64,000 nt of DNA from Vicinamibacteria bacterium (lineage in GTDB: Bacteria > Acidobacteriota > Vicinamibacteria > Marinacidobacterales > Marinacidobacteraceae): NCBI GenBank assembly GCA_965199715.1, contig OZ241322.1, positions 320,001 to 384,000 of the forward strand, in the 5' to 3' direction. The position numbers and the translations under genes were made by a program. Shown here in pieces: positions 3,687 to 34,555 of this stretch; position 1 is the first letter of the stretch, and each line of letters begins with the position of its first letter. The notes below the pieces were generated by a model. That model worked only from the letters and a program-made list of their open reading frames with translations. It made no database searches and was not told where the DNA came from.

Positions 3687-6600
3687 GGCCCCGGCCCCCG
3701 CAGCGGGAGGAGCACCGCGATCAGAAGCCCCGGCTCGCCGTCGGGACGGCTCTCCGCCCGCACCGAACCGCCGTGCGCCTCGGCGAAGCGGCGGGTGTTC
3801 GCGAGGCCGAGGCCGGAGCCCCTGGTCCTCGTCGAGAACTCGGCCTCGAAGACCCGCTCGCGAAGCTCCCGGCTGACGCCCGGGCCGTTGTCCTCCACCT
3901 CGATCCGCGCCCGCGAGCCGGCCCGGCGGGCGCGGACCGCGATCTCCCCGTCCTCGCGCCCGGAGTCGCCGACGGCCTCGAGCGCGTTCTGGAGCAGGTT
4001 CTCCACGATGCGGGCGAGGATTCCGGCGTCCGCCCGGACCCGGAGGCCGAGTTCGGCCTCCACCCGAATTCCGATCCCGCCCGACGCCCGCGCGTAGGGA
4101 GCGACGGTCTCGCCGGTGAGCGTCCCGAGATCGACCTCCTCGAGCTCGAGCGGCGCGCCGACGGCGGAGAACTCGGAGGAGATCCGGCGGAGGCGCTCCA
4201 CCTGAAGCAGGATGTCCCGGCTGCCCTCGAGCGCGGTCTCGCGCACGTCCCGGCCGCGCGGGTCGCGGGCCACCCGGTCGATGTAGTCGGCGGTGAACTG
4301 GATCGGCGCCAGCGCGTTCTTGATGTCGTGCGCCGCCCGCCGCGCGAGGTCCGCCGTCGCCTCCTCGCGCATCCGTCGACGCACGCCGGGAATGCGGCGG
4401 GTGAGCCGCTCCACGCTGCGGGCGAGGAGGCGCAGCTCGTCCACGTCTCCGGCCTCGGCTACCGGCCCCTCGACCGATCCGTCGGCGATGCGATGGGTGA
4501 CCCGCGCCAGCCGCCGCACCGGCGCTGCGAGCCGCCGCGCCATGAAGCCGGGGAGCAGCACCGCGCACACGAGCGCCACCACTCCGGCGGCGAGGACGAG
4601 CGTGTGCTGGAGCGCCCGCGCCCCGGCCTCCCGCGCCGCCTCCAGTCGGGGCAGGGGAACCGCGAGGAAGCGCTCGCGGACGCCTCCGGGCAGCCGCACC
4701 CAGGCGATCCGGTAGCGCAGCGAATCGGGCTCGGCGCGATCCAGCACCGGCTCGCTCCCGATCGCCGCCATCGCCGGGATCGCCGGATGAGCGGGCAGCA
4801 GGCCCGCGAGCGCCAGCGCCGGACGGCTGACCCCGGCGAGTCGGCCCGCCTCGTAGAGCGCGAGGTCGGCGTCCACCTGGTCCGCCGCCCGCGCCAGCCG
4901 GAGCTCCAGCTCGGACGGGTCGAGTCCGGCCTCGAACGCGCCCGAGGCGCGGGCGACCCGCTCGGCGACGCCCGCCCGCTCGGCCGCCTCGGCCTCGCTG
5001 GTCCCGTCGAGCACGGCCTCCATCCGCCGCTCGCCGAAAACCGAGAGCCCGATCACCGCGACGAGCACCGCGGCCCCGAGCGCTTCGGTGAGCTGCATCC
5101 GGAAGCTGCGCCGCAAGCGGCGTCGGCGCGAGCCGGGAGCGAGCAGCCGAATGCGGACGGCGACTGCGGGGACGAGCGCGAACACGACCGCAAGGAAGAG
5201 CCATCCGAGCGCGCCGGCCGCGATGTCCTGCCAACCGGTCCGCCGCCACGACACGCGCCATAGCTCGTCGCCGACGGGGATCGACGAGGACGCCCGATCG
5301 GAGTCCAAAAGCCCGGCCGCGGGCGCGAGGCGAAGGTCGCGTCCGGCGAAGATGGCCGGAGCGGCGGGGTCCTCGAGCAGGAAGTGGTCGGCGACCCCGC
5401 CCGGCCGCGACGCCATCGGGACGTCGGCGACCCGCACGGCCACGGTTAGGCGGAATCGTTCTCCTCCCGCGAGGCGCCCGTCCACGTGGAACGCGTCCCC
5501 GGAGTCGGCCGCGCAGGCGCGGAACGCCCCGCCCGGCGCGCCGTCGGGCGCCGCGGGGCCCATCGGCGCACCGGCTTGGCGGGGAAATCCGACCGAGAAT
5601 CGGGAAACCGCGCCCTCCGCGCCCTCGACGGCGAGGCCGCTCGGCAGGTTCAGCCGGGGCAGGCCGGTGGCGAGCCAGAGGCGCCACGCCGCGTCCGGCG
5701 GCGCCGCCGCGATCGCGGTCCGCGCTAGCTCGGCGCTCGCCTCCGCGGCGGCGTGGCAGACCCGGTAGCGGTGCCGCTCGATCTGCGCCGGGGCCTCGGT
5801 GGCGGCGAAGGCGTGGCGGCTGGCGCCCTCGAACCACTCCATCGCCGGGAGCAGCAGCAATTGCGGGCCGATGAAGAGGCTCAGCGCGAGGAAGAGGGCG
5901 AGCCCCGGCTCCTTCCGCCCGAGCGGCGCCCGCAGTTGGCGCATCCACAGGCGGCCTCGGGAGGTTCGGCGGACGGCGAGCGCTCCGGCGAACGCGAACG
6001 CCGCGGCGAGCCCGACGGCCGGACCGAAACCGATTCCGGCGAGCGCGACCGCGCCCCACCCGGCGCCGGACGCCCACCCGCCCCGGCGCAGCGCGAGCAG
6101 CGCCCCGAGCATCGCGGCGGAGACCGCGGCCATGAGCGCGAACCAGCCGACGATCTCGGCGCTCCCGGCGCCGACCTGCCAGCGCGGCGTCATCGGGAAC
6201 GCGCCGGTCGCGGCGATCTCCCGCAGGAGGAGCACGAGCGCCACGACGATCCCGGCGGCGAGCGCGCCGTGCGCGGCGGCCCGGAGCGGTTTTCGGGGCG
6301 CGGCGGCGCCGCCGGGTCCTTGCACCTGCACCACGCGCATCGCCGCGAGCGCGGCGAGCGCGGTGAGGAGCGCCCCCGCGGGCGAGGCGGGAATTCCCGG
6401 CAGCCCGGGAGACGCGCCGCCGCCCCAGGCGAACAAGGCGGCGCCCGGGAAGGCGTCGGAAAGCGCGCGCAGGAGCGAACCTCCGCCGAAGAGGAAGAGC
6501 CCGACCGCCGCGAGCGCGCCGAAGAGGCCCGACTTCCACAGCAGCGTCCCGGCGACCGCTCCGCCGGCGAACAGCGCGAACGCCGCGAGCGGCTGCGCCC

Positions 6601-25412: not shown

Positions 25413-28400
25413 TCACTGGAAGTCCCGGCTTGGGATGTCGGGGGCCGCGATTTCCGGGCGGAAGAGGCGCTCCACGATGACGTGGGTCACCCCCTGGCCG
25501 GCCTCGGGGCCGGCGGAGCTCCGCTCGGTCTCGATCCGTCCGGAGACGCCGAGGAACGACAGCGTCAGGGCGAGGCGGCGCTGGCGCTCGAAGACGTCCG
25601 GCCAGAGGATCAGATTCACGAACCCGGTCTCGTCCTCAAGCGTCATGAACAGCACTCCCGAAGCGGTGCCCGGACGCTGCCGGCAGATCACGAGGCCGGC
25701 GTAGCGGACCTCATTCCCCGAGCGCATCGCCGCCACTTCCCGCGCGGTCGGAAGCCCGTCGGCCTTGAGCCGACCCCGAAGCGGCTCGAGCGGGTGGCCG
25801 CGCACGCTGTGACGGGTCGTCCGGTGGTCCCACGCGATGGACTCGAAGGAGTCGAGCCCGGCGAACCGGGGCGCGGGCTCTTGCAGCAGCGACTCGCCGG
25901 CCTCCCCGGCGGCGCCGAGCGCGGTCCAGACCGCCTCCCGGCGGTTCTTCGGGCCGAGGCCCCGGAAGGCGTCGGCCTCGGCGAGCGCGGCGAGCGCCTT
26001 CTTGCCGAGACCGGTCCGGCGGGCCAGATCCTCGATGGAGGCGAATCGCCCCTCGTTCCGGGCGCGGAGCAGTTTCGCCGCCTCGGCCTCGCCGAGCCCC
26101 TTCACGTATCGAAGGCCCATGCGGATCGCCGGCGCGTCCTTCCCGAACGGCTCGAGCGCGCAGTCCCAGCCGCTTCGGTTCCCGTCCACCGGGAGGAACC
26201 GCACCCCGCGCCGGCCCGCGTCCTGGATGATCGTGGAAGGCTGGTAGAAGCCCATCGGCTGGGCGTTCAGGAGCGCGCAGACCGACTCCGCCGGGTAGTG
26301 CCGGAGGATCCACGCGCCGGCGTAGCTGATGAGCGCGAAGCTCGCGGCGTGGCTCTCGGGGAACCCGTACTCGCCGAACCCCTGGATCTGCTGGACGATC
26401 CGCTCGGCGAACTCACGGGCGACGCCTCGGGCGGTCATCCGCGAGATCAGCCGCGTCCGGTGCCCGCCGATGCTGCCGGCGCGCCGCCACGCCGCCATGT
26501 CGCGGCGAAGCTGGTCCGCCTCGCCGGGCGAGTAGTCCGCCGCCACCACCGCGAGCCGCATCACCTGCTCTTGGAAGAGCGGCACTCCGAGCGTCTTCTC
26601 CAGCACCGGAACCAGCAGCGGGTGGGGGTACTCCACCGGTTCCTCGCCGCGCCGGCGGCGGAGATAGGGATGGACCATGCCCCCCGCGATCGGGCCGGGG
26701 CGGACGATGCTGATCTGGATGACGAGGTCGTAGTAGTTCTCGGGGCCGAGCCTCGGGAGCATGGACATCTGGGCGCGGCTCTCGATCTGGAACACCCCCA
26801 CGGTGCGCGCCTCGCGGATCATGGCGAAGGTCTCCGGGTCGTTCGGGGGGATGCTCGCCATGTCGAGGTCCACGCCCCGGGACTCGCGCAGCAGGCGGAA
26901 GGCGAGATCGAGCTGGGTGAGCGCCCCGAGCGCCAGCAGGTCCACCTTGAACAGGCCGAGCGCCTCGATGTCGTCCTTGTTCCACTGGATCACCGTCCGC
27001 CCCGGCATCGCCGCCCGCTCCACCGGGACGATCGTGGAGACCGGCTCCCGCCCGAGGAGGAAGCCCCCGGGATGGATCGAGAGGTGGCGGGGGAACCCCT
27101 GGATCTCGCCGACCAGCCGGATGAGATGGCGCACCGCCGGGGTCTCGGGCGACCACCCCGCCGCCTGGAGCGACCGGTCGGAGGCCGGCTCGTCGCGGGA
27201 GAAGCGCCGCGCCAGCCGGTCCACCGCTCCGGCGGAGAAGCCGAGCGCCTTGCCGAGGTCCCGGACCGCCGAACGGGTCCGGTAGCGGACGGTGTTCGCC
27301 ACCATCGCCGCCCGGTCCTCGCCGTACTTCCGGTACACGAAGCGGATCACCTCCTCGCGACGGGCGTGCATGACGTCCAGATCCATGTCCGGGGGCTCGG
27401 CCCGCTCCCGCGAGAGGAAGCGCTCGAACAGGAGGCGCATCCGCACCGGGTCCACCGCGGTGATCCCGAGGCAGTAGCAGACCGCCGAATTCGCCGCCGA
27501 GCCGCGCCCCTGGCAGAGGATCCGGTTCTCCTCGCAGAAGCGGACGATCTCATGCATGGTCAGGAAGTAGCCGCCGTAGTCGAGCTCCTCGATCAGCTCC
27601 AGCTCCTTCAGAAGCTGGCGGCGCACCGGCTCGGGGACGCCCTCGGGCCAGCGGCGGGCGGCGCCCTCGAAGGTCCGCTTCCGGAGCGCGTCCCCGTCGC
27701 CCTCCAGCGGGTAGCGGTAGCGGACGTCGTCGAGGGAGAAGCGGCAGCGCTCGCCGATCTCGAGGCTGCGGGCCACCGCCGCCGGGTGGTCGGCGAAGAG
27801 CGCGGCGAAGTTCGCCCCGGCGCGGAGGAAGTACTCGGCGTTCGGGCGCAGGAGGCGGCCCGCCCGGGCCAGCGGGGTCCGATGGCGGATCGCGGTGAGC
27901 GCGTCCTGGAGGTCGCGGCGACCCGGACGGTGGTAGAGCACCTCGGTGGCCGCGACCAGCGGCGCCTGGTAGCGCGCCGCGCGCTCCCGAAGGCGCGCCT
28001 CCTCGGGAACGTCGGAGTCGCGGGCGTGCCGGGGGAGCAGGATGGAGAGGCGCTCGCCGAAGGCGTCCCGGAACAGGCGGCCCTCGCGGTCGGGCGGGCC
28101 GTCGTCGAGGAGCGGCGTCCGGCCCGTCCCCCAAAGCGCCTGGAGCCCCTCGGCCGCTTCCGCGATCTCCTCGGGGCGGACGCCCGAGGTCCGGGTCCCC
28201 ATGGGGGCGCCGTCGTCGGCCTCGACCCGATGGGAACTCCGCATGAACCCCCGGGTCAGCAGCCGGCAGAGGTTCTTGTAGCCGGTCCCGTTCTCCGCGA
28301 GCAGCACGATCCCCCCGGCGGGCGCCCCGTCCTCTCCCAGAATTCCCGCCTCGGCCCCCACCACGAGCCGGAGACCGAGGTTCCGAGCCTCCACGTGGGC

Positions 28401-28544
28401 CTGCACCATGCCGCCGAGGCTCTCCCGGTCGGTGAGCGCGAGGCCCGGCAGGCCGATGGCGTGGGCCTCGGTCACGAGCTCCTGCGGGTGGCTCGCGCCC
28501 TCGAGGAGCGAGGCGTTGCTCTTGCACCACAGCGGGTAGTACAC
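25413..28544 (-). CDS. dnaE2: Error-prone DNA polymerase DnaE2 (ImuC)
   Basis: CQGRGSAANS, PDMDLD, LSIHPGG, YGFPESH, NAQPMGFY, RQRPGTASG, C-terminal SRDFQ. Confidence 0.97.
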   Translation of the reverse strand: MYYPLWCKSNASLLEGASHPQELVTEAHAIGLPGLALTDRESLGGMVQAHVEARNLGLRLVVGAEAGILGEDGAPAGGIVLLAENGTGYKNLCRLLTRGFMRSSHRVEADDGAPMGTRTSGVRPEEIAEAAEGLQALWGTGRTPLLDDGPPDREGRLFRDAFGERLSILLPRHARDSDVPEEARLRERAARYQAPLVAATEVLYHRPGRRDLQDALTAIRHRTPLARAGRLLRPNAEYFLRAGANFAALFADHPAAVARSLEIGERCRFSLDDVRYRYPLEGDGDALRKRTFEGAARRWPEGVPEPVRRQLLKELELIEELDYGGYFLTMHEIVRFCEENRILCQGRGSAANSAVCYCLGITAVDPVRMRLLFERFLSRERAEPPDMDLDVMHARREEVIRFVYRKYGEDRAAMVANTVRYRTRSAVRDLGKALGFSAGAVDRLARRFSRDEPASDRSLQAAGWSPETPAVRHLIRLVGEIQGFPRHLSIHPGGFLLGREPVSTIVPVERAAMPGRTVIQWNKDDIEALGLFKVDLLALGALTQLDLAFRLLRESRGVDLDMASIPPNDPETFAMIREARTVGVFQIESRAQMSMLPRLGPENYYDLVIQISIVRPGPIAGGMVHPYLRRRRGEEPVEYPHPLLVPVLEKTLGVPLFQEQVMRLAVVAADYSPGEADQLRRDMAAWRRAGSIGGHRTRLISRMTARGVAREFAERIVQQIQGFGEYGFPESHAASFALISYAGAWILRHYPAESVCALLNAQPMGFYQPSTIIQDAGRRGVRFLPVDGNRSGWDCALEPFGKDAPAIRMGLRYVKGLGEAEAAKLLRARNEGRFASIEDLARRTGLGKKALAALAEADAFRGLGPKNRREAVWTALGAAGEAGESLLQEPAPRFAGLDSFESIAWDHRTTRHSVRGHPLEPLRGRLKADGLPTAREVAAMRSGNEVRYAGLVICRQRPGTASGVLFMTLEDETGFVNLILWPDVFERQRRLALTLSFLGVSGRIETERSSAGPEAGQGVTHVIVERLFRPEIAAPDIPSRDFQ

Positions 28545-28568: not shown

Positions 28569-30161
28569 TCATTCCACCCGTCCCTCCAGAAACCAGTCGC
28601 GCCGCTCTCGGTCGTAGAACACCCAGCAGGTCTCGCCGGTCTTCAGGGAGGCGAAGTAGTAGTCCCGGACGACCGGCCTGCCGGAGAGCCGCCGCCACCA
28701 TCCCCCGGAAATCCGGTAGGGGCCGACCGCCGAGACCACCGAACCGTGCTCCACGCCCCGGAGCAGCCAGCCGTCCGGCTCCGCCGAGTCCCGGTGGGGC
28801 AGGGCGAGCGGCTCGTCGTAGATCCGCCGGACGATCGCCGGGGCTCCGGGCAGCCGCCCGCCGTCCCCGCCCTCCATGAGGATCGGTTCGGAGGCGGGCT
28901 TCGGCGCGGCGGGCCGGGACCGGGGAAACGCCCGATCCGCCGGAACCGGCCGGCAGCGGTACCGCTCGGCCGGCAGCCAGCCGTCGCGCTTCTCGATCCG
29001 GAACAGGCAGCTCTCGCCGAACTCGGCCTGGACCCGGGCGAGCCCGCCCGCCGCGAGCTTCCGTTGGCGCGGAGAGGTTCCGAACAGCCCGGCCTGCTCG
29101 GAGAGCGCCGCCCCGCCGTGCGCGCGGAGGACTAGGCAGGCGACGCGGCCGCCGCCCTGGGCCAGCTCGCGGTCGAACCGGAGGCGCAGCAGGGAGAGGA
29201 TCCGGACCGCGTCCGCCGAGGGCTCCGCCGGAACCACCTCGCCTTCCCGGCGGCCGTCCTCCTCGTCGTCGATCCGGTAGGCGAGCTTCCGGAGCGCGAG
29301 GCCCCGATGGCCCAGATCGGCCAGCAGTCCGTCCACGAGCCGCTTGACCTGGAAGAGCAGCCGCTCGCCGTCCGACTCCGGCGGCTCGAAGTCCATGCGC
29401 CGCTCGAGCGGCCGCTCGGGGCGGAAGACGTCGCCGGCCATCGTCTCGACGGCGCCCGAGGCCAGGCGATGCAGCTGGGCGATCTCGACCCCGAACCGGT
29501 TCCGGAGCCCGCCGGCCGGCTGCCGGAGCAGATCCCCGAGGGAGCGGACGCCGAGCCGGTCGAGGGCGGCGAGCGTCGGGGCGGGCAGGCCGAAGGAGAC
29601 GAGCGGAGTCCGGCCCGCCGCCTCGCGCTCCTTCTCCAGGTCGGGGAAGACCCGCATCCCGAAGGACGCGCGGGCGGCGGCGAAAGAGCCGAACCGGGTG
29701 AATCCCACCGTCACCGAGGCCTGGAACCCCCGCTCGGCCAGGTCCTCGCGGATGGCGGCGCCCCATTCGGAGGGCGACCCGAAAAGCGTCGAGAGGCCGG
29801 AGGCCACCAGCCAGAAGGTCCCCGACGCGCCGCGGCCGTCCAGAAGCGGAGCGAGCGCGTCGGCCAGCTCGACCTGCGGGCTCCATCGCCGCAACCGGGA
29901 CGCGACCGCTTCGGCCTCCTTGCGGACTTCCGGCTCGGAAACCCAGCCGGCGCGCAGGTCGGGGCAGACCGCGGCGGCCGTGGGGTGGCGCATGCCGACG
30001 CGCACGCCCTGACGGATCGCGGCGCGGTTCGCCGAGGCGATCCGGGCGAGGGCGCCGTCCTCGGTCAGCGACGCCGCCGGACCGTCCCGCCAGTCCGGAC
30101 GGCTCCGCAGCAGGATCTGCAGCGGAAACGCCGGCAGGTCAACGCAGGCCGTTCGGCTCAC
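28569..30161 (-). CDS. imuB: ImuB, catalytically inactive Y-family polymerase
   Basis: Y-family N terminus (GVRVGM...A.AVCP), QAGLF clamp-binding-like motif, C-terminal GGWW..RDYY; lies between imuA and dnaE2. Confidence 0.88.
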   Translation of the reverse strand: MSRTACVDLPAFPLQILLRSRPDWRDGPAASLTEDGALARIASANRAAIRQGVRVGMRHPTAAAVCPDLRAGWVSEPEVRKEAEAVASRLRRWSPQVELADALAPLLDGRGASGTFWLVASGLSTLFGSPSEWGAAIREDLAERGFQASVTVGFTRFGSFAAARASFGMRVFPDLEKEREAAGRTPLVSFGLPAPTLAALDRLGVRSLGDLLRQPAGGLRNRFGVEIAQLHRLASGAVETMAGDVFRPERPLERRMDFEPPESDGERLLFQVKRLVDGLLADLGHRGLALRKLAYRIDDEEDGRREGEVVPAEPSADAVRILSLLRLRFDRELAQGGGRVACLVLRAHGGAALSEQAGLFGTSPRQRKLAAGGLARVQAEFGESCLFRIEKRDGWLPAERYRCRPVPADRAFPRSRPAAPKPASEPILMEGGDGGRLPGAPAIVRRIYDEPLALPHRDSAEPDGWLLRGVEHGSVVSAVGPYRISGGWWRRLSGRPVVRDYYFASLKTGETCWVFYDRERRDWFLEGRVE

Positions 30162-30882
30162 GACAGACTCCCTCGAAGCGGAACCCCGGGGGCAGGGAGG
30201 CTTCGGAAGATTGGCCCTTGTCCTTGAGGACGGTGACCGCGAGCTCCTTGCCCTGGGGACCCCGTCGGCTCGCGTCGTAGCGCTTCACGATCCTCGGGTC
30301 CAGCGAGGGCATGCCGGAGCCCTTCGCGGTCAGGAGGACCACCGCGTTCCCGTGTCGCCTCGCCAGCGCCGACAGCCGGGCCAGCGGCGGAACCCGCGGC
30401 CGCGACCGCTCCGGGCGACCGCTCCGGAACGGCCGCCGGGCGCCGCCGAGGCGGGGCTGCTCCGCGTCCGCGAGATCCACCACCACCAGCCCGAACGCTC
30501 CGGCATGGGCGAGATGGGTCGCCGCCCGGATCTGGGCTTCGGTCCCCTCCACCCGGACGAGGACGATGCGCTCCGGCGCCGCTCCGGACCGCTCGGCGTC
30601 CGGCGGATAGAAGACGCTCCGGGGAGACCCGACCCAGGCGACGAAGCCGTGCCGCTCCTCGTCCTCCTGGGCTTCGGCGACCAGCCGGAGCGCCGCCGTC
30701 AGCGCGCCCGAAGCCGGCCCGCCCGAGATCTCGACGAGGCATCCGAGAAGCGGCCGCAGCCCGAAGACCGGAGCGGGAAGCCGCTTGCGGGAGAACCCTC
30801 CCGCAGCGGGGGCCGGAAACGGCAGGACCGCCGGAGCGGGCGGTTCCGGTTGGAGCTTTCGCAGGGGCAACATCGCGCTCAC
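30139..30882 (-). CDS. imuA: ImuA, RecA-like accessory protein
   Basis: LVEISG..SG degenerate P-loop, AWV....FYPP, LVVVD; position in the cassette. Confidence 0.82.
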   Translation of the reverse strand: MSAMLPLRKLQPEPPAPAVLPFPAPAAGGFSRKRLPAPVFGLRPLLGCLVEISGGPASGALTAALRLVAEAQEDEERHGFVAWVGSPRSVFYPPDAERSGAAPERIVLVRVEGTEAQIRAATHLAHAGAFGLVVVDLADAEQPRLGGARRPFRSGRPERSRPRVPPLARLSALARRHGNAVVLLTAKGSGMPSLDPRIVKRYDASRRGPQGKELAVTVLKDKGQSSEASLPPGFRFEGVCREPNGLR

Positions 30883-31490
30883 CGAAGGCTGCGGCGCAGC
30901 TCCACGACCCGGCCGAGGATCCGGCAGGAATCCGGGTTGGGTCGGAGGATTTCGAAAGCGGGGTTCTCCGGGCGCAGCTCCACCCCCCCCGCGCTCCGGT
31001 GGAACCGCTTCACCGTGGCCTCTCCCTCCACGAGCGCCACGACCACCTGACCGTTCGCCGGCTCGACGCCGCGCTCCACGACCACCGTGTCGCCGGGGAG
31101 GATGCCGGCCCCCGTCATGCTCTCTCCCCGGACCCGGAGCGCGAGGAAGTCCTCCGGATCCCGGCTTGGGGAAAGTTCGACCGGGAGGAAGCCCTCGGGG
31201 TTCTCGACGGCCTCCTCGAAGCCGCCCGCGGCGACCTCGCCCAGAATGGGAATCGGCTGGGCGGGCACCGCAAGCCGGTCGGGAAGGCGGTAGCCCCGCG
31301 CCCGGCCCGGCTCCCGCAACAGCCTTCCTTCCCGCACCAGCGCGGTCAGGTGCGCCCTTGCGGTCTCCAGGGCGCGAAACCCGAAGTGGTCCCGGATTTC
31401 CCGCAGGGAAGGGGAATCCCCCCGCTGGAGCCGCTGGCGGACGAAGCGGAAGATCCGTTCCCGGGTCTGGCCGGGAGGCGTCTTGGGCAT
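30879..31490 (-). CDS. lexA: LexA repressor
   Basis: HTH PSLREIRDHFG, Ala-Gly cleavage site VAAG, Ser in GESM, Lys in TVKR. ATG at 31490 is preferred as start. Confidence 0.95.
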   Translation of the reverse strand: MPKTPPGQTRERIFRFVRQRLQRGDSPSLREIRDHFGFRALETARAHLTALVREGRLLREPGRARGYRLPDRLAVPAQPIPILGEVAAGGFEEAVENPEGFLPVELSPSRDPEDFLALRVRGESMTGAGILPGDTVVVERGVEPANGQVVVALVEGEATVKRFHRSAGGVELRPENPAFEILRPNPDSCRILGRVVELRRSLR

Positions 31491-31497
31491 GCCCGGA

Positions 31498-31527
31498 ACG
31501 GTAACAGACATTTGTCTGTTATCGCAA
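31498..31527 (-). promoter_or_regulatory. lexA promoter (-35 TTGCGA, 18 nt, -10 TACCGT) containing the perfect palindrome TAACAGACA-N2-TGTCTGTTA (candidate LexA operator)
   Basis: Palindrome at 31502-31521 fills the -35/-10 spacer; the -10 lies 7 nt before the ATG. Confidence 0.75.
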
Positions 31528-31535
31528 ATCCGGGA

Positions 31536-32318
31536 TCAGAAGGGGACCTCGTCCTCCTCGTCGTTCTGCTCCACGCCGCTGCTCCGCTCCGGCGCGTACC
31601 GCGGCGCCGGCTCCGTCCGCCGCAGCTTCTCGTTGAACCCGTCGTCCGCGCGGCCCGAATCCGTGCGCGCCGCCGGCTCCCCGGTGCCGTCGCTTCCCAC
31701 CACGGTCTGCGCGATCGTCTCGGTCGAACGGCGCTCGCTTCCGTCGCGGGCGGTGTACTTGCGGCTCTCGACGTGCCCCACCACGAAGACCCGCTGGCCC
31801 TTGCCCAGCTCCCGCTCCATCCGGTCCGCGAGCGAACCGAAGGCCGTCACCGAATGCCACTCGGTCTCCTCGACCTCGCCGGGGGGCGGGGGCCAGCCCG
31901 AGCTGGTCGCCACTCCCACGCTGGCGCCGGACCGGCCGAACCTGCGGACCTGGCTAATGTTGCCGAGGATGAACGATCGGTTCCGCTGCGGCTCGGCGTC
32001 CTCGACTTCCTGCACGATGTCGGCGAGCACGCCGGTCGCCTGCATCTGCTGTCCCGACCGATTCCGGAACTTGCGCGTCTGGAGGCGGCCCTCGACGTAC
32101 GCGGCGGACCCGGTCTCGAGCCTTTCGGCCGCGGTGATGGCGGCGCCCCTCGCGCAGATGCGGTGGAACGCCGACCGCTCCTGGCTCGAGCCGTCCTCCG
32201 CGGGTTCGAGGGTGACGGTCTTCATCACGAAGCCCACCCGGCGCGCTCCGCCGGAGTCCTTCGTGGTGGGCGGGTCATGCACGATCCCGCGCAGGATGAT
32301 CTTGTTGACGTCTCTCAC
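31536..32318 (-). CDS. ssb: Single-stranded DNA-binding protein with two OB folds and acidic tail (EDEVPF)
   Basis: OB1 VNKIILRG..FHRI..YVEGRLQTRKF; OB2 NRSFILGN..TEWHSVTAFG.LA..GKGQRVFVVGHVESRKY. GTG start overlaps the upstream stop. Confidence 0.88.
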   Translation of the reverse strand: MRDVNKIILRGIVHDPPTTKDSGGARRVGFVMKTVTLEPAEDGSSQERSAFHRICARGAAITAAERLETGSAAYVEGRLQTRKFRNRSGQQMQATGVLADIVQEVEDAEPQRNRSFILGNISQVRRFGRSGASVGVATSSGWPPPPGEVEETEWHSVTAFGSLADRMERELGKGQRVFVVGHVESRKYTARDGSERRSTETIAQTVVGSDGTGEPAARTDSGRADDGFNEKLRRTEPAPRYAPERSSGVEQNDEEDEVPF

Positions 32319-33064
32319 AGCCACTCGTCCTCCATGCCGCCGTCGTCCTCGCGGGACGGGCCGGTCATCTCCTCGGGCTCGTCGGGCTCGGACGGCGCTT
32401 CCCCGTTCCCGTTCGCGAGGATCGTCCGGACGACGGTCTCGGTGGCGCGGCGATCCTCGCCCTCCCGGTCGGTGTACTTGCGCGTGCGGACGTAGCCGAG
32501 CGCGAAGATCCGCTCGCCCTTCTGCGTCGTCCGGTCCATCTCTTTCGCGAGATCGCCGAATGCGGCGACCTCATAGAACGCCGCCTCCTCGTAGTCCTCG
32601 AATCCGCCGCCGACCTTCCGGAACCGCTTCTCGTCCACGGCGACCCGCACCCCCGCCGCGATGAGCGAGTCGCTCTCCCGGAGCTTTTGCTTGCGGTCCA
32701 CCGAACCGAGCAGGATCGAATGGTTCAGGTGCGGGTCGGCGCTCCGGACGGCGCGAAGGACCCTCGCGCGCACCTCGGTGGCCTCGGCTTCCTGCCCCTC
32801 CCGATTCGTGTAGCTGCGGGTGCGGAGCTCGCCCTCCACGTAGACCGGACTGTCCTCGTCGAGCCCCTCGGCCACGTCGGCGTTCTTGCCCCGCGCCGAG
32901 ACGCGGTGCCAAGCCTTCTGGTCGCGCTCGCCGCCGTCGGAGTCCGCTTCCGAGGTCACGGTGTGGACGTTGATGTTGACGACCTTCGACCCTCCGTCGA
33001 ATTCCCACTTTTTCGGCGGCTCCGAAAGGACTCCGCGCAGGATGACCTTGTTCAGGTCCTTCAT
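32315..33064 (-). CDS. ssb: Second single-stranded DNA-binding protein with two OB folds and variant acidic tail (EDEWL)
   Basis: OB1 LNKVILRG..WHRV..VYVEGELRTRSY; OB2 LNHSILLG..FYEVAAFG.LA..KGERIFALGYVRTRKY. Confidence 0.85.
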   Translation of the reverse strand: MKDLNKVILRGVLSEPPKKWEFDGGSKVVNINVHTVTSEADSDGGERDQKAWHRVSARGKNADVAEGLDEDSPVYVEGELRTRSYTNREGQEAEATEVRARVLRAVRSADPHLNHSILLGSVDRKQKLRESDSLIAAGVRVAVDEKRFRKVGGGFEDYEEAAFYEVAAFGDLAKEMDRTTQKGERIFALGYVRTRKYTDREGEDRRATETVVRTILANGNGEAPSEPDEPEEMTGPSREDDGGMEDEWL

Positions 33065-33104
33065 GACCAGCGCTCCTTCCCGTCGCCCGAAGGCGGCCGG
33101 GCGA

Positions 33105-33941
33105 TCAGCAGCCGGGTTCCGACGCCGGCAGCCCCGCCAACTGGCGCTCGGCTGCGAGGGCGGCCGGGGTCCCGGCGAATACCTCCAATATGTCCTCGTA
33201 GATCTCCCGGGCGTCCTCTTGGTTGCCCAGTCGCTCCAGGATGTACCCCTTCTTGTACCAGGCGTCGGGCACTTGGTCGCTGTCGGGGAAGTCCTCGATG
33301 AGTGTCTCGAACTGCGAGAGCGCGTCCTCGAGTCGTTCCTCGGCGAGCATCGACTCGCCGAGGAAGTACACGGCGTTGTCCGCCAACTCGCCCCCGATCT
33401 CGATCACGTGCTCGAAGCCGGAGACCGCGAGCGCGTACCGTCCTTGCAGATAGTCGGCGCGAGCCTCCAAGAAAAGATCCGAGACCCCCGGCCCTTCCAG
33501 CACCTCGGCCTCGGGCGCCGCGTCCTCGTCTTCGGCCGCCGGGTCGGGGCCGGCGGTCGCCTCCTCTTCGGTTCCCGGCGTCTCGACGGGAAGGAGCGCC
33601 GCGCTGCGGAGCTCGCGCAGCTCCTCGACCTCGGCCATCAGGTCTGATAGCCGCTGGTTGTTCTGGCTGATCGACTCCCGAATGACGTCGACGTTCCGGT
33701 CGAGGCGGGAGATCGTGTTCGAGCTCTCGGCGCGCGCCCGCCGGTTCGCCTCGAGCTCCTGGTCCAGTTCGGCGCGCAGTCCGGTGATCTCTTCGGCGAG
33801 CGTTCCCTGCGCCTCGATGAGGTCCGCGAGCTGCGTCTGGATCTGACGGATCTCGGCGATGATGCGGTCCTGGTCGCGCTGCGCGCCGAACGCCGGAGCG
33901 ACGCCGACGAGGAGGATCGCCGGAAGGACGAGCCGGATCAC
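33105..33941 (-). CDS. cpoB: Cell division coordinator CpoB (YbgF)
   Basis: Signal peptide, coiled coil, C-terminal TPR (LADNAVYFLGE..DAWYKKG); downstream of pal. Confidence 0.88.
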   Translation of the reverse strand: MIRLVLPAILLVGVAPAFGAQRDQDRIIAEIRQIQTQLADLIEAQGTLAEEITGLRAELDQELEANRRARAESSNTISRLDRNVDVIRESISQNNQRLSDLMAEVEELRELRSAALLPVETPGTEEEATAGPDPAAEDEDAAPEAEVLEGPGVSDLFLEARADYLQGRYALAVSGFEHVIEIGGELADNAVYFLGESMLAEERLEDALSQFETLIEDFPDSDQVPDAWYKKGYILERLGNQEDAREIYEDILEVFAGTPAALAAERQLAGLPASEPGC

Positions 33942-34555
33942 TTGGCCACGACCACGAAGTGGGCCCTGCGGTTGCGCCGCCACGCCTGCTCGTTGCGCGC
34001 CGGATCGAGCGGGACTTCCTTCCCGAAGCTGATCGTGCGCAGCCGGTTCGACGCGATGTCCAACTGCGCCAGGAAGTCGCGGACGCTCCGGGCGCGCAGG
34101 TCGCCGAGCGCGAGGTTGTACTCCACCGTGCCGCGTTCATCGCAGTGCCCCTCGATCTGCACCGAGACGGCGCCGTGGCGGCGCAGCCATTCGGCGTGCC
34201 GGGTCAGGATCGCCTGCGCCTCGGCCGAGAGGTCCGCGCTGTCGTAGTTGAAGTGCACGTCCTCGAGCGGCGCCAGCGCGTTCAGCTCGGCGAGGGTCAT
34301 CGAGGCGACGTCGAGCGATTCGGAGCGGACCGAGGACTCGGGCGCGCGGGCGAGGATCTCGTCGTCGGTGAGCCCGCCGGCGGACGCGGCGCCCCGGGCG
34401 TCCGCCGCGGCCGGAGCCGATTCCGCGGTCTCCTCCGTCGCGTCCATCACGGCGTCGGCGGGAACGCCCGCGGTCGCCGGGGCGCGCCCCGAGCTCCCGC
34501 AGCCGCCGAGCAGAAGAAGAACGCCCGCGCTGGCCAGAAGACGAGAGAGAGACAT
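33938..34555 (-). CDS. pal: Peptidoglycan-associated lipoprotein Pal
   Basis: Lipobox LGGC; IEGHCDERGTVEYNLALG; NRRAHF. Confidence 0.96.
   Translation of the reverse strand: MSLSRLLASAGVLLLLGGCGSSGRAPATAGVPADAVMDATEETAESAPAAADARGAASAGGLTDDEILARAPESSVRSESLDVASMTLAELNALAPLEDVHFNYDSADLSAEAQAILTRHAEWLRRHGAVSVQIEGHCDERGTVEYNLALGDLRARSVRDFLAQLDIASNRLRTISFGKEVPLDPARNEQAWRRNRRAHFVVVAK

Follow-up and report, generated by a model that had tools for sequence, protein, structure and literature searches.

The window analysed here is a stretch of 64,000 nucleotides from a Vicinamibacteria bacterium of the phylum Acidobacteriota (GenBank assembly GCA_965199715.1, contig OZ241322.1, positions 320,001 to 384,000), and the subject is a pair of adjacent minus-strand genes within it, ssbA and ssbB. 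Each gene encodes an SSB, a protein that binds single-stranded DNA, in which two oligonucleotide/oligosaccharide-binding (OB) folds are carried by one chain; the products are referred to as A and B, and the coordinates of all features are collected in Table 1. A preliminary description, made from the letters and their open reading frames (ORFs), had placed frames of 249 and about 260 amino acids, ending in GMEDEWL and DEEDEVPF, between positions 31536 and 33064; both are read there as intact minus-strand frames, and the gene pair is confirmed.

Anatomy of the tandem ssb genes

Both proteins pass the curated family cut-offs for SSB. The Pfam SSB model (PF00436; cut-off 26 bits) matches each protein in two stretches, just as the preliminary description had expected, with 104 bits (E 5.4e-30) for ssbA and 99 bits (E 1.9e-28) for ssbB; similarly, TIGR00621 (cut-off 53.95 bits) matches each in two stretches, with 103.6 bits for ssbA and 104.5 bits for ssbB, and the identity of each as a true double-OB SSB is supported. 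The proteins are collinear and 38% identical (93 of 243 positions); A and B are therefore whole-gene duplicates of a gene that was already two-domain.

In its longest form, ssbB (31536–32324) would encode 262 residues from a first GTG at 32324. The second GTG, at 32318, is the likelier start, because GGAGGA stands 9 nt upstream of it, the resulting product opens with MRDVNK as in the family consensus, and the entry for ssbB in the public protein collection (P0025) is the 260-residue form. With this start, the stop/start overlap GTGA at 32315–32318 that had been pointed out beforehand is borne out, and the final six codons of ssbA (ATG GAG GAC GAG TGG CTG) coincide with the Shine-Dalgarno region and the start of ssbB.

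Since the genome is a metagenome-type assembly, a mis-assembled repeat or a single gene split by a frameshift was considered as the origin of the pair. Nothing was found for such an artefact, and it is exceedingly improbable: copies with so low a protein identity cannot stem from a repeat that was collapsed or expanded, both proteins are complete with two OBs, an 11,259-nt contig from a run of another study (a run that is itself a possible source of the DNA) covers 31000–33600 with 0 differences, and contigs of a second study cover 31000–32605 with 0 differences at depth 2. The artefact reading is dismissed. The stretch occurs in runs labelled 'sponge metagenome' (a possible source) and in runs of further studies.

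The preliminary description had also left room for an ordinary single-OB ssb elsewhere in the genome. None was found by a six-frame PF00436 search (E up to 0.01) of the 2,656,567 bases in 2 contigs, an assembly that is 93.37% complete, with about 7% of the genome possibly missing; the four OB matches obtained (59.1, 49.4, 46.3, and 57.0 bits) all lie within ssbA and ssbB, which together are the only SSB genes found in the assembly.

The four OB folds differ in the residues that characterize E. coli SSB. The E. coli-like aromatic set SSGW...TEWHSVTAFG, already singled out from the letters, is located in the C-terminal OB of ssbB, where it aligns to W40, W54/H55, and F60 of E. coli SSB, with Tyr at the W88 position; an account of what these residues do is given in PMC4872115. 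Across the family, the N-terminal OBs are without equivalents of W40 and F60 and keep AWH(R/Q)V, the Trp of which is retained in ssbA and replaced by Phe in ssbB. The C-terminal OB of ssbA reads AAFYEV where the family reads ETEWH.V, that is, W54>F and H55>Y together with T>A and E>A, and its W40 position holds Arg, followed by Phe. Every one of the four OBs has an aromatic residue at the equivalents of W54 and W88, and 20 columns are invariant over 21 family sequences with A and B among them. When changes are counted at the columns that are invariant in 18 single-copy proteins from outside the genus, the N-terminal OBs are altered at 4 (A) and 6 (B) of 34 columns, and those of the genus mates at 3–6; the C-terminal OBs are altered at 12 (A) and 7 (B, with 3 inside one deletion) of 30 columns, and those of the genus mates again at 3–6. 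A scheme of complementary decay, in which A keeps its N-terminal OB and B its C-terminal OB, was tried and found weak, given that only the C-terminal OB of A stands out and the N-terminal OBs lie within the genus range.

At the C-terminus, the linker motif and end typical of the family, SGV..(D/E)n.VPF, are present in ssbB, which thus has an acidic Pro-Phe SSB-Ct, and ssbA has neither the linker motif nor PF. An end like the EWL of ssbA is absent from the other 69 of 70 two-OB representatives and from 13 full-length homologues. Upstream of the ssbB start, the sequence is similar to the ssbA leader, a weak likeness between two sequences of high GC. We infer that the tail ssbA once had is gone and that its frame now ends within the leader copy in front of ssbB, and therefore that it would be a tail-less subunit rather than the bearer of a second type of docking tail. 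What had first been described as a variant tail looks instead like a lost one, the ORF running on into the ribosome-binding region of ssbB.

Models built with AlphaFold2 (AF2) on 21-row family alignments reached a predicted local distance difference test score (pLDDT) of 87.0 and a predicted template modelling score (pTM) of 0.78 for ssbA, and 82.2 and 0.72 for ssbB, with confident OBs and disordered tails. For both models, the best full-length Foldseek matches are 2FXQ, 2IHF, 2IHE, 2CWA, 1SE8, and 3UDG (E 6e-17 to 7e-12; target TM 0.73–0.83; 21–24% identity), which are the SSBs of T. aquaticus, T. thermophilus, and D. radiodurans; single-OB SSB structures cover just half of either model. The predicted arrangement of the two OBs within a chain is that of the solved Deinococcus-Thermus proteins. 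These dimeric SSBs (1SE8/3UDG, 2FXQ/2IHE, 2CWA) share with the present proteins two OBs per chain of about 260–300 residues, a disordered linker, and an acidic ...PF end (here in B), and according to PMC4872115 and PMC1761420 they are homodimers in which four OB folds come together and each chain bears one tail. They are encoded by one gene, whereas two diverged tandem genes, one of them without the PF tail, are found here, in an Acidobacteriota family whose sister families are single-OB.

Family-wide distribution and repeated duplication

The two-OB gene is common to the family (f1) of the genome carrying the window (G000). Adjacent pairs of OB matches, i.e., a two-OB gene, occur in 24 of 24 sampled family genomes; in two sister families of the same order, one OB match was found in 15 of 16 genomes and none in 1. 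A profile of the two-OB protein was run on 151 genomes of the class from 19 families, with six matches unlisted: it is matched at full length in G000 and in 26/26 other family genomes, and in the C-terminal half alone (about positions 113–269) in 120/124 genomes of the 18 other families, 4 having no match. A stricter first look at 401 genomes of the phylum returned only G000 at E 1e-40, a floor from a sample with no other f1 member. One same-order genome flagged as unpublished (G033) supplies one single-OB row of these counts and one row (L008) of the domain tree. The gene order tolB-pal-cpoB-ssb-lexA-imuA-imuB is conserved across the family, and the position of ssb beside the lexA cassette is therefore inherited synteny and no feature of the pair. 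The double-OB ssb is the ancestral state of the whole family at the tol-pal/lexA locus; the two-OB gene is a family trait, and the tandem pair of G000 is species-level within its genus. Two further, divergent SSB-like ORFs were seen off the main locus in two family genomes, namely one with 207 residues and one weak OB (L031, G014:C2, 3541–4164) and one of 263 residues on a 3.5-kb contig, in which the second OB alone is recognisable (L038, G020:C91, 1584–2375).

Double-OB SSBs had been regarded in the preliminary description as a hallmark of Deinococcus-Thermus, a view that does not hold, since they are also present throughout f1 and, in a profile search of 1.84 billion representatives, two (or more) OB domains are found in 70 of the best 150. 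The same search gave 67 proteins at E 1e-30 or better and eight full-length clusters above 300 bits, with A and B each in a cluster of its own; among 5.8 billion clustered proteins, the nearest outside relative of ssbA is 50% identical. The other natural double-OB SSBs are alike in length (220–320 residues), in their two PF00436-like OBs, and mostly in an end of the form (D/E)(I/V/L)PF, but many come from their own internal duplications and are not relatives of the f1 gene. None of them was seen to form a tandem pair, though their genomic surroundings were not examined. When the domains were placed in a FastTree tree, the two domains of one protein came out as direct sisters in 27 of 63 two-OB proteins from outside the family, and two-OB SSBs therefore arose many times, by separate internal duplications. 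A 267-residue two-OB SSB of a Thermodesulfobacteriota metagenome-assembled genome (MAG; L044, 3992–4795), for example, has two domains that are mutually closest, which points to an independent internal duplication.

A sequence search of the PDB gave 52.6 bits for the ssbB C-terminal OB against E. coli-type SSBs and 37–38 bits for the whole protein against 2CWA/1SE8. This E. coli-type similarity, together with the confinement of two-OB genes to f1 among the 19 sampled families of the class, suggests that the gene of the family arose separately from those of Deinococcus-Thermus. The domain trees contain no named Deinococcus-Thermus sequence and are weak at their deep nodes: one places the f1 C-terminal OBs by a gammaproteobacterial MAG and the N-terminal OBs by a UBP10 MAG (90 and 82 in the Shimodaira-Hasegawa-like approximate likelihood ratio test, SH-aLRT), and a second, at odds with the first, joins both kinds of f1 OB in one loose cluster (support 87). 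Two proteins taken as Deinococcus-Thermus representatives, P0051 and P0070 (263 and 264 residues), proved not to be Thermus SSBs. The pattern used to search genome contigs for such loci also caught ordinary SSBs, and 1 of its 80 loci came from f1. In the open library searched, neither two-OB SSBs of Acidobacteria nor a two-OB SSB of heteromeric make-up is the subject of any paper that was found.

Within the family, the N-terminal and C-terminal OBs form separate clades (SH-aLRT 100 and 99), and A and B are collinear. The two duplication events proposed at the outset fit these data, as an older intragenic event and a later whole-gene tandem duplication that gave A and B. The pair itself, when followed into related genomes, is unconserved: the three genus mates (G001–G003, one contig each) carry a single two-OB gene and no tandem copy. 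Elsewhere in the family, tandem copies occur in G007 and G012 of genus g5 (two each) and in G005 of genus g3 (three). A maximum-likelihood tree built from 30 full-length proteins groups A and B with the singles of the genus mates (support 85/93), in a trichotomy that is not resolved; the g5 copies make up a clade of their own (100/99) in which each copy is common to both species (100/100), and the G005 copies stand apart; by this placement, the family therefore duplicated its two-OB ssb at least three separate times. In approximately unbiased (AU) tests, the three topologies (A and B as sisters, B outside, A outside) lie within 0.03 log-likelihood units of one another (p-AU 0.44) and thus put the duplication neither before nor after the genus split. 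The g5 genes (L023 of G007, 4394–6125; L028 of G012, 4245–5967) lie about 100 nt apart, and the downstream copy ends in DDPGF, not VPF. The three tandem two-OB genes of G005 (L021, G005:C147, 4266–7455) end in DEAPF, GEPPF, and DEVPF, and no copy in the family is more altered than the middle one, in which 18 of the 30 invariant C-terminal OB columns are changed.

Both G000 copies are fast-evolving. Their end branches measure 0.95 and 0.80 vs 0.11–0.40 for the genus mates; their identity to the SSB of the mates is 44–51% (44–50% for B) vs 59–69% among the mates; and the nonsynonymous rate (dN) against G003 is 0.40 for A and 0.37 for B vs 0.16–0.23 among the mates. Neighbouring genes of G000 are not accelerated, TolB being 82–85% identical to the mates vs 80–88% among them, and LexA 76–77% vs 76%. 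Between A and B, dN is 0.61 and the synonymous rate (dS) 0.63 by the Nei-Gojobori method (NG86), which is near neutral at face value, with a dS that is unreliable, being probably compressed by a third-position GC content (GC3) of 0.92–0.94, and no verdict on selection is drawn for A/B. For the tandem pair of g5, dN/dS of each paralog between the two species is about 0.23–0.24; both copies are under purifying selection, and such pairs can therefore be kept by selection.

One reading of this divergence is that ssbA is a redundant young duplicate, with B (or its homodimer B2) doing all the work and A drifting, its tail lost to a deletion that reached into B's duplicated leader. The absence of the pair from the genus mates would agree with it, as would the lack of a close relative of A, the 12 altered columns of its C-terminal OB (W54>F, H55>Y, and the W40 position among them), the A-B dN/dS near 1, and the use of the last codons of A as the ribosome-binding site of B behind two similar leaders. 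It is nonetheless unlikely: the frame of A is open over its full length of 249 codons and has a GC3 of 0.92 like the genome context, its N-terminal OB is as conserved as those of the mates, its AF2 model has a higher confidence than that of B, and it is unchanged in the contigs of runs from further studies. Moreover, B is accelerated as well, and a useless gene would be expected to disappear from a streamlined 2.66-Mb genome.

The lexA cassette downstream

The preliminary description had noted that the ssb pair lies directly upstream of, and co-oriented with, a lexA-imuAB-dnaE2 cassette. Position and orientation stand, but the cassette appears to have an operator of its own, so that the arrangement represents family synteny and not shown co-regulation. 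An 18-nt perfect palindrome between ssbB and lexA occurs as a single copy in the 2.66-Mb genome and overlaps the start of the longest lexA ORF (31511); it is followed by a -10-like TATGCT and then by the conserved lexA start MPKTPPGQ. The true start of lexA is most likely the ATG at 31490 and not 31511, because the relatives open with MPKTPPGQ at the equivalent ATG, just past the palindrome. The core CAGACA-N-ATGTCTG precedes lexA in 8 of 10 regions from relatives, one further region being cut off at its end and one being without it. On account of its position, symmetry, and conservation, the palindrome is likely a LexA operator, the sole target of which in the genome would likely be lexA-imuA-imuB-dnaE2. 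The ssb genes are not behind it, as its only copy lies downstream of ssbB, and the ssb pair would thus fall outside the unit that it governs. The gap between ssbB and lexA is about 45 nt in G000 vs 100–800 nt in relatives, and read-through from ssbB into lexA may occur. The compactness of the operon fits the smaller genome (2.66 Mb vs 2.9–4.9 Mb in the family). Against ImuA and RecA models, the imuA candidate scores 16–22 bits, far under the cut-offs.

Table 1. Positions of the ssb genes, their domains, and the neighbouring features in the window.
Feature	Position	Strand	Description
cpoB/ybgF-like TPR protein	33105–33983	minus	closes the tol-pal cluster and lies 40 nt upstream of ssbA; TPR Pfam matches, neighbour conserved in relatives
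ssbA	32315–33064	minus	upstream double-OB SSB paralog, 249 aa, ends GGMEDEWL, without canonical PF tail; ORF call
ssbA N-terminal OB	32753–33061	minus	residues 2–104; envelope of own OB hidden Markov model (HMM); Pfam 59.1 bits; keeps W54/H55 equivalent (AWHRV)
ssbA C-terminal OB	32417–32734	minus	residues 111–216; HMM envelope; Pfam 49.4 bits; most altered of the four OBs
ssbA acidic linker and end	32318–32416	minus	33 aa, net charge -11, without SGV..DD.VPF; modelled as disordered, pLDDT <50
Coupling junction	32315–32333	minus	GGAGGA (32328–32333), 9-nt spacer, ssbB GTG overlapping ssbA TGA (GTGA 32315–32318)
ssbB	31536–32318	minus	downstream double-OB SSB paralog, 260 aa from GTG 32318, ends DEEDEVPF; ORF call
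ssbB N-terminal OB	32010–32315	minus	residues 2–103; HMM envelope; Pfam 46.3 bits; Phe at W54 equivalent (AFHRI)
ssbB C-terminal OB	31698–31991	minus	residues 110–207; HMM envelope; Pfam 57.0 bits; E. coli-like aromatic set
ssbB disordered linker and SSB-Ct tail	31539–31697	minus	SGVEQNDEEDEVPF; aligns to family motif SGVxTxDDxDxVPF; pLDDT <50
18-nt perfect palindrome	31503–31520	.	minus-strand sequence AACAGACAAATGTCTGTT; candidate LexA operator, 15 nt past the ssbB stop
lexA	30879–31490	minus	TIGR00498 139.5 bits (cut-off 110.95); start likely ATG 31490
imuA-like	30139–30882	minus	position between lexA and imuB, weak RecA-like similarity
imuB-like	28569–30161	minus	IMS/ImuB-type, PF00817 38.6 bits
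dnaE2	25413–28544	minus	error-prone DnaE2, NF004225 1232 bits (cut-off 939)

Proposed assembly of A and B and its significance

It is proposed that A and B, as tandem paralogs of the two-OB ssb of the family between tol-pal and lexA, would be made together from one message, and that two chains would form one four-OB unit, as in Deinococcus-Thermus, so that an A/B heterodimer would be a major, possibly the main, species. In such a dimer, B would supply the one canonical partner-recruiting tail (...DEVPF), and A would supply two further OBs and a short, very acidic end without the PF motif; the fast divergence, greatest in the C-terminal OB of A, would be a relaxation after duplication, with the partner chain covering the function. 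Cross-assembly often persists between paralogs of homomeric origin that are produced side by side, and for this reason the mixed dimer is ranked first as the best explanation, tentatively and at a little less than an even chance. In its favour are the translational coupling of the genes, which overlap by 4 nt behind a ribosome-binding site, RNA-library contigs across their junction, and one complex prediction.

A complex prediction for A (1–220) and B (3–215 of the 262-residue form), run with custom alignments, scored 0.50 (runs 0.43, 0.53, and 0.50) vs 0.00 for the best control; the runs share at least 77% of their contacts, and the partner pLDDT is at least 82. Among solved complexes 116 of 157 attain this mark, and among mismatches 2 of 215; those that pass with 0.60 or less are only 18 of the 157 complexes and both of the mismatches. 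The support is weak. As for a common message, contigs from two RNA libraries extend across the A/B junction (X6, 32109–33600; X7, 31534–32854) and are identical to the window or carry one synonymous change (31884, X7); both libraries come from the study that is possibly the source of this DNA. X7 has no contig over 31435–31521, where X6 has one, a gap that proves nothing. A scan of 31300–34200 found no promoter-like site, and the 3 weak terminator-like sites in the same interval (1.3 expected) include none between the ssb genes.

Several points weigh against the mixed dimer. A score of 0.50 lies in the weak band, A+B was the only combination modelled, and the pass may be a memory of the fold, considering that SSB dimers and tetramers have been solved. 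The RNA-library contigs prove neither transcription nor a single transcript, as DNA may occur in RNA libraries, and gene overlaps are common in this compact operon (4 nt in lexA/imuA, 23 nt in imuA/imuB). The three genus mates manage with one gene, so that the lineage has no need of a heterodimer; the near-neutral divergence of A from B and the altered C-terminal OB of A are as compatible with decay as with specialisation in the case of the latter, and at face value with neutrality in the case of the former. Furthermore, the bacterial SSB paralog pairs known to us act as separate homo-oligomers.

A division of labour between two homodimers is the next reading to be weighed, and a rather doubtful one, although it is likelier than redundancy. 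B2 would be the housekeeping replicative SSB with two canonical tails, as in Deinococcus-Thermus, and A2 a tail-less accessory protein that coats or protects single-stranded DNA and leaves the usual partners unrecruited, comparable to SsbB of Bacillus, Streptococcus, and Streptomyces. It would account for the linker motif and ...DEVPF end being kept in B and missing from A, and for the EWL end being unparalleled among the double-OB representatives and homologues examined, and the 38% identity leaves room for drift at the interface. SSB paralog pairs with separate roles are documented, as outlined in PMC3384303, PMC3128108, and PMC3616714: those of B. subtilis, S. pneumoniae, and Streptomyces coelicolor are likewise two paralogs, one full-tailed and the other more specialised. 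They are single-OB tetramers from separate loci or under separate regulation, one of them serving in competence or sporulation, whereas the present genes are double-OB, adjacent, overlapping, and the sole SSBs. Separate regulation of the second paralog is not seen here, in view of the 4-nt overlap, the lack of a promoter or terminator between the genes in the scan, and the junction-spanning RNA-library contigs, which are weak evidence. The A/B complex model, for its part, passed its controls, if weakly, and the acceleration of B is odd for an unchanged housekeeping copy.

A stronger form of the mixed-dimer proposal holds that A/B is an obligate heterodimer and the only replicative SSB of the cell, with all four OBs different and one canonical tail; this form is improbable, and a state with one canonical tail reportedly fails in engineered E. 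coli SSB. The nearest laboratory likeness is the linked-dimer E. coli SSB (SSB LD) with its variants in which two OBs are disabled, where two two-OB chains also make a four-OB unit with non-equivalent OBs and fewer than four tails, and SSB LD complements in vivo according to PMC4872115. SSB LD is a laboratory construct with identical OB sequences, whereas the asymmetry here is natural, with four differing OBs and one canonical tail if A/B forms.

The textbook bacterial SSB is a symmetric homo-oligomer with four equivalent OB folds. Until now, the number of OBs and tails that are required has been explored in E. coli by means of engineered, linked constructs, as described in PMC4872115. The locus offers a natural series within one family and its surroundings, with single-OB genes in the sister families, one double-OB gene in most members, and independently duplicated pairs plus one triple in three genera. 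Even without a heterodimer, the finding that a whole Acidobacteriota family has a two-OB protein as its sole SSB, together with the repeated origins of two-OB SSBs, corrects the statement that such proteins are confined to Deinococcus-Thermus. The heterodimer idea is reasonable but unproven; if true, A/B would be the first natural bacterial SSB known to us with four different OBs and one canonical tail. If the heterodimer were obligate, wrapping of single-stranded DNA and partner recruitment would have been re-divided among non-equivalent OBs, in a manner comparable to eukaryotic RPA, and two further genera of the family may have gone the same way on their own.

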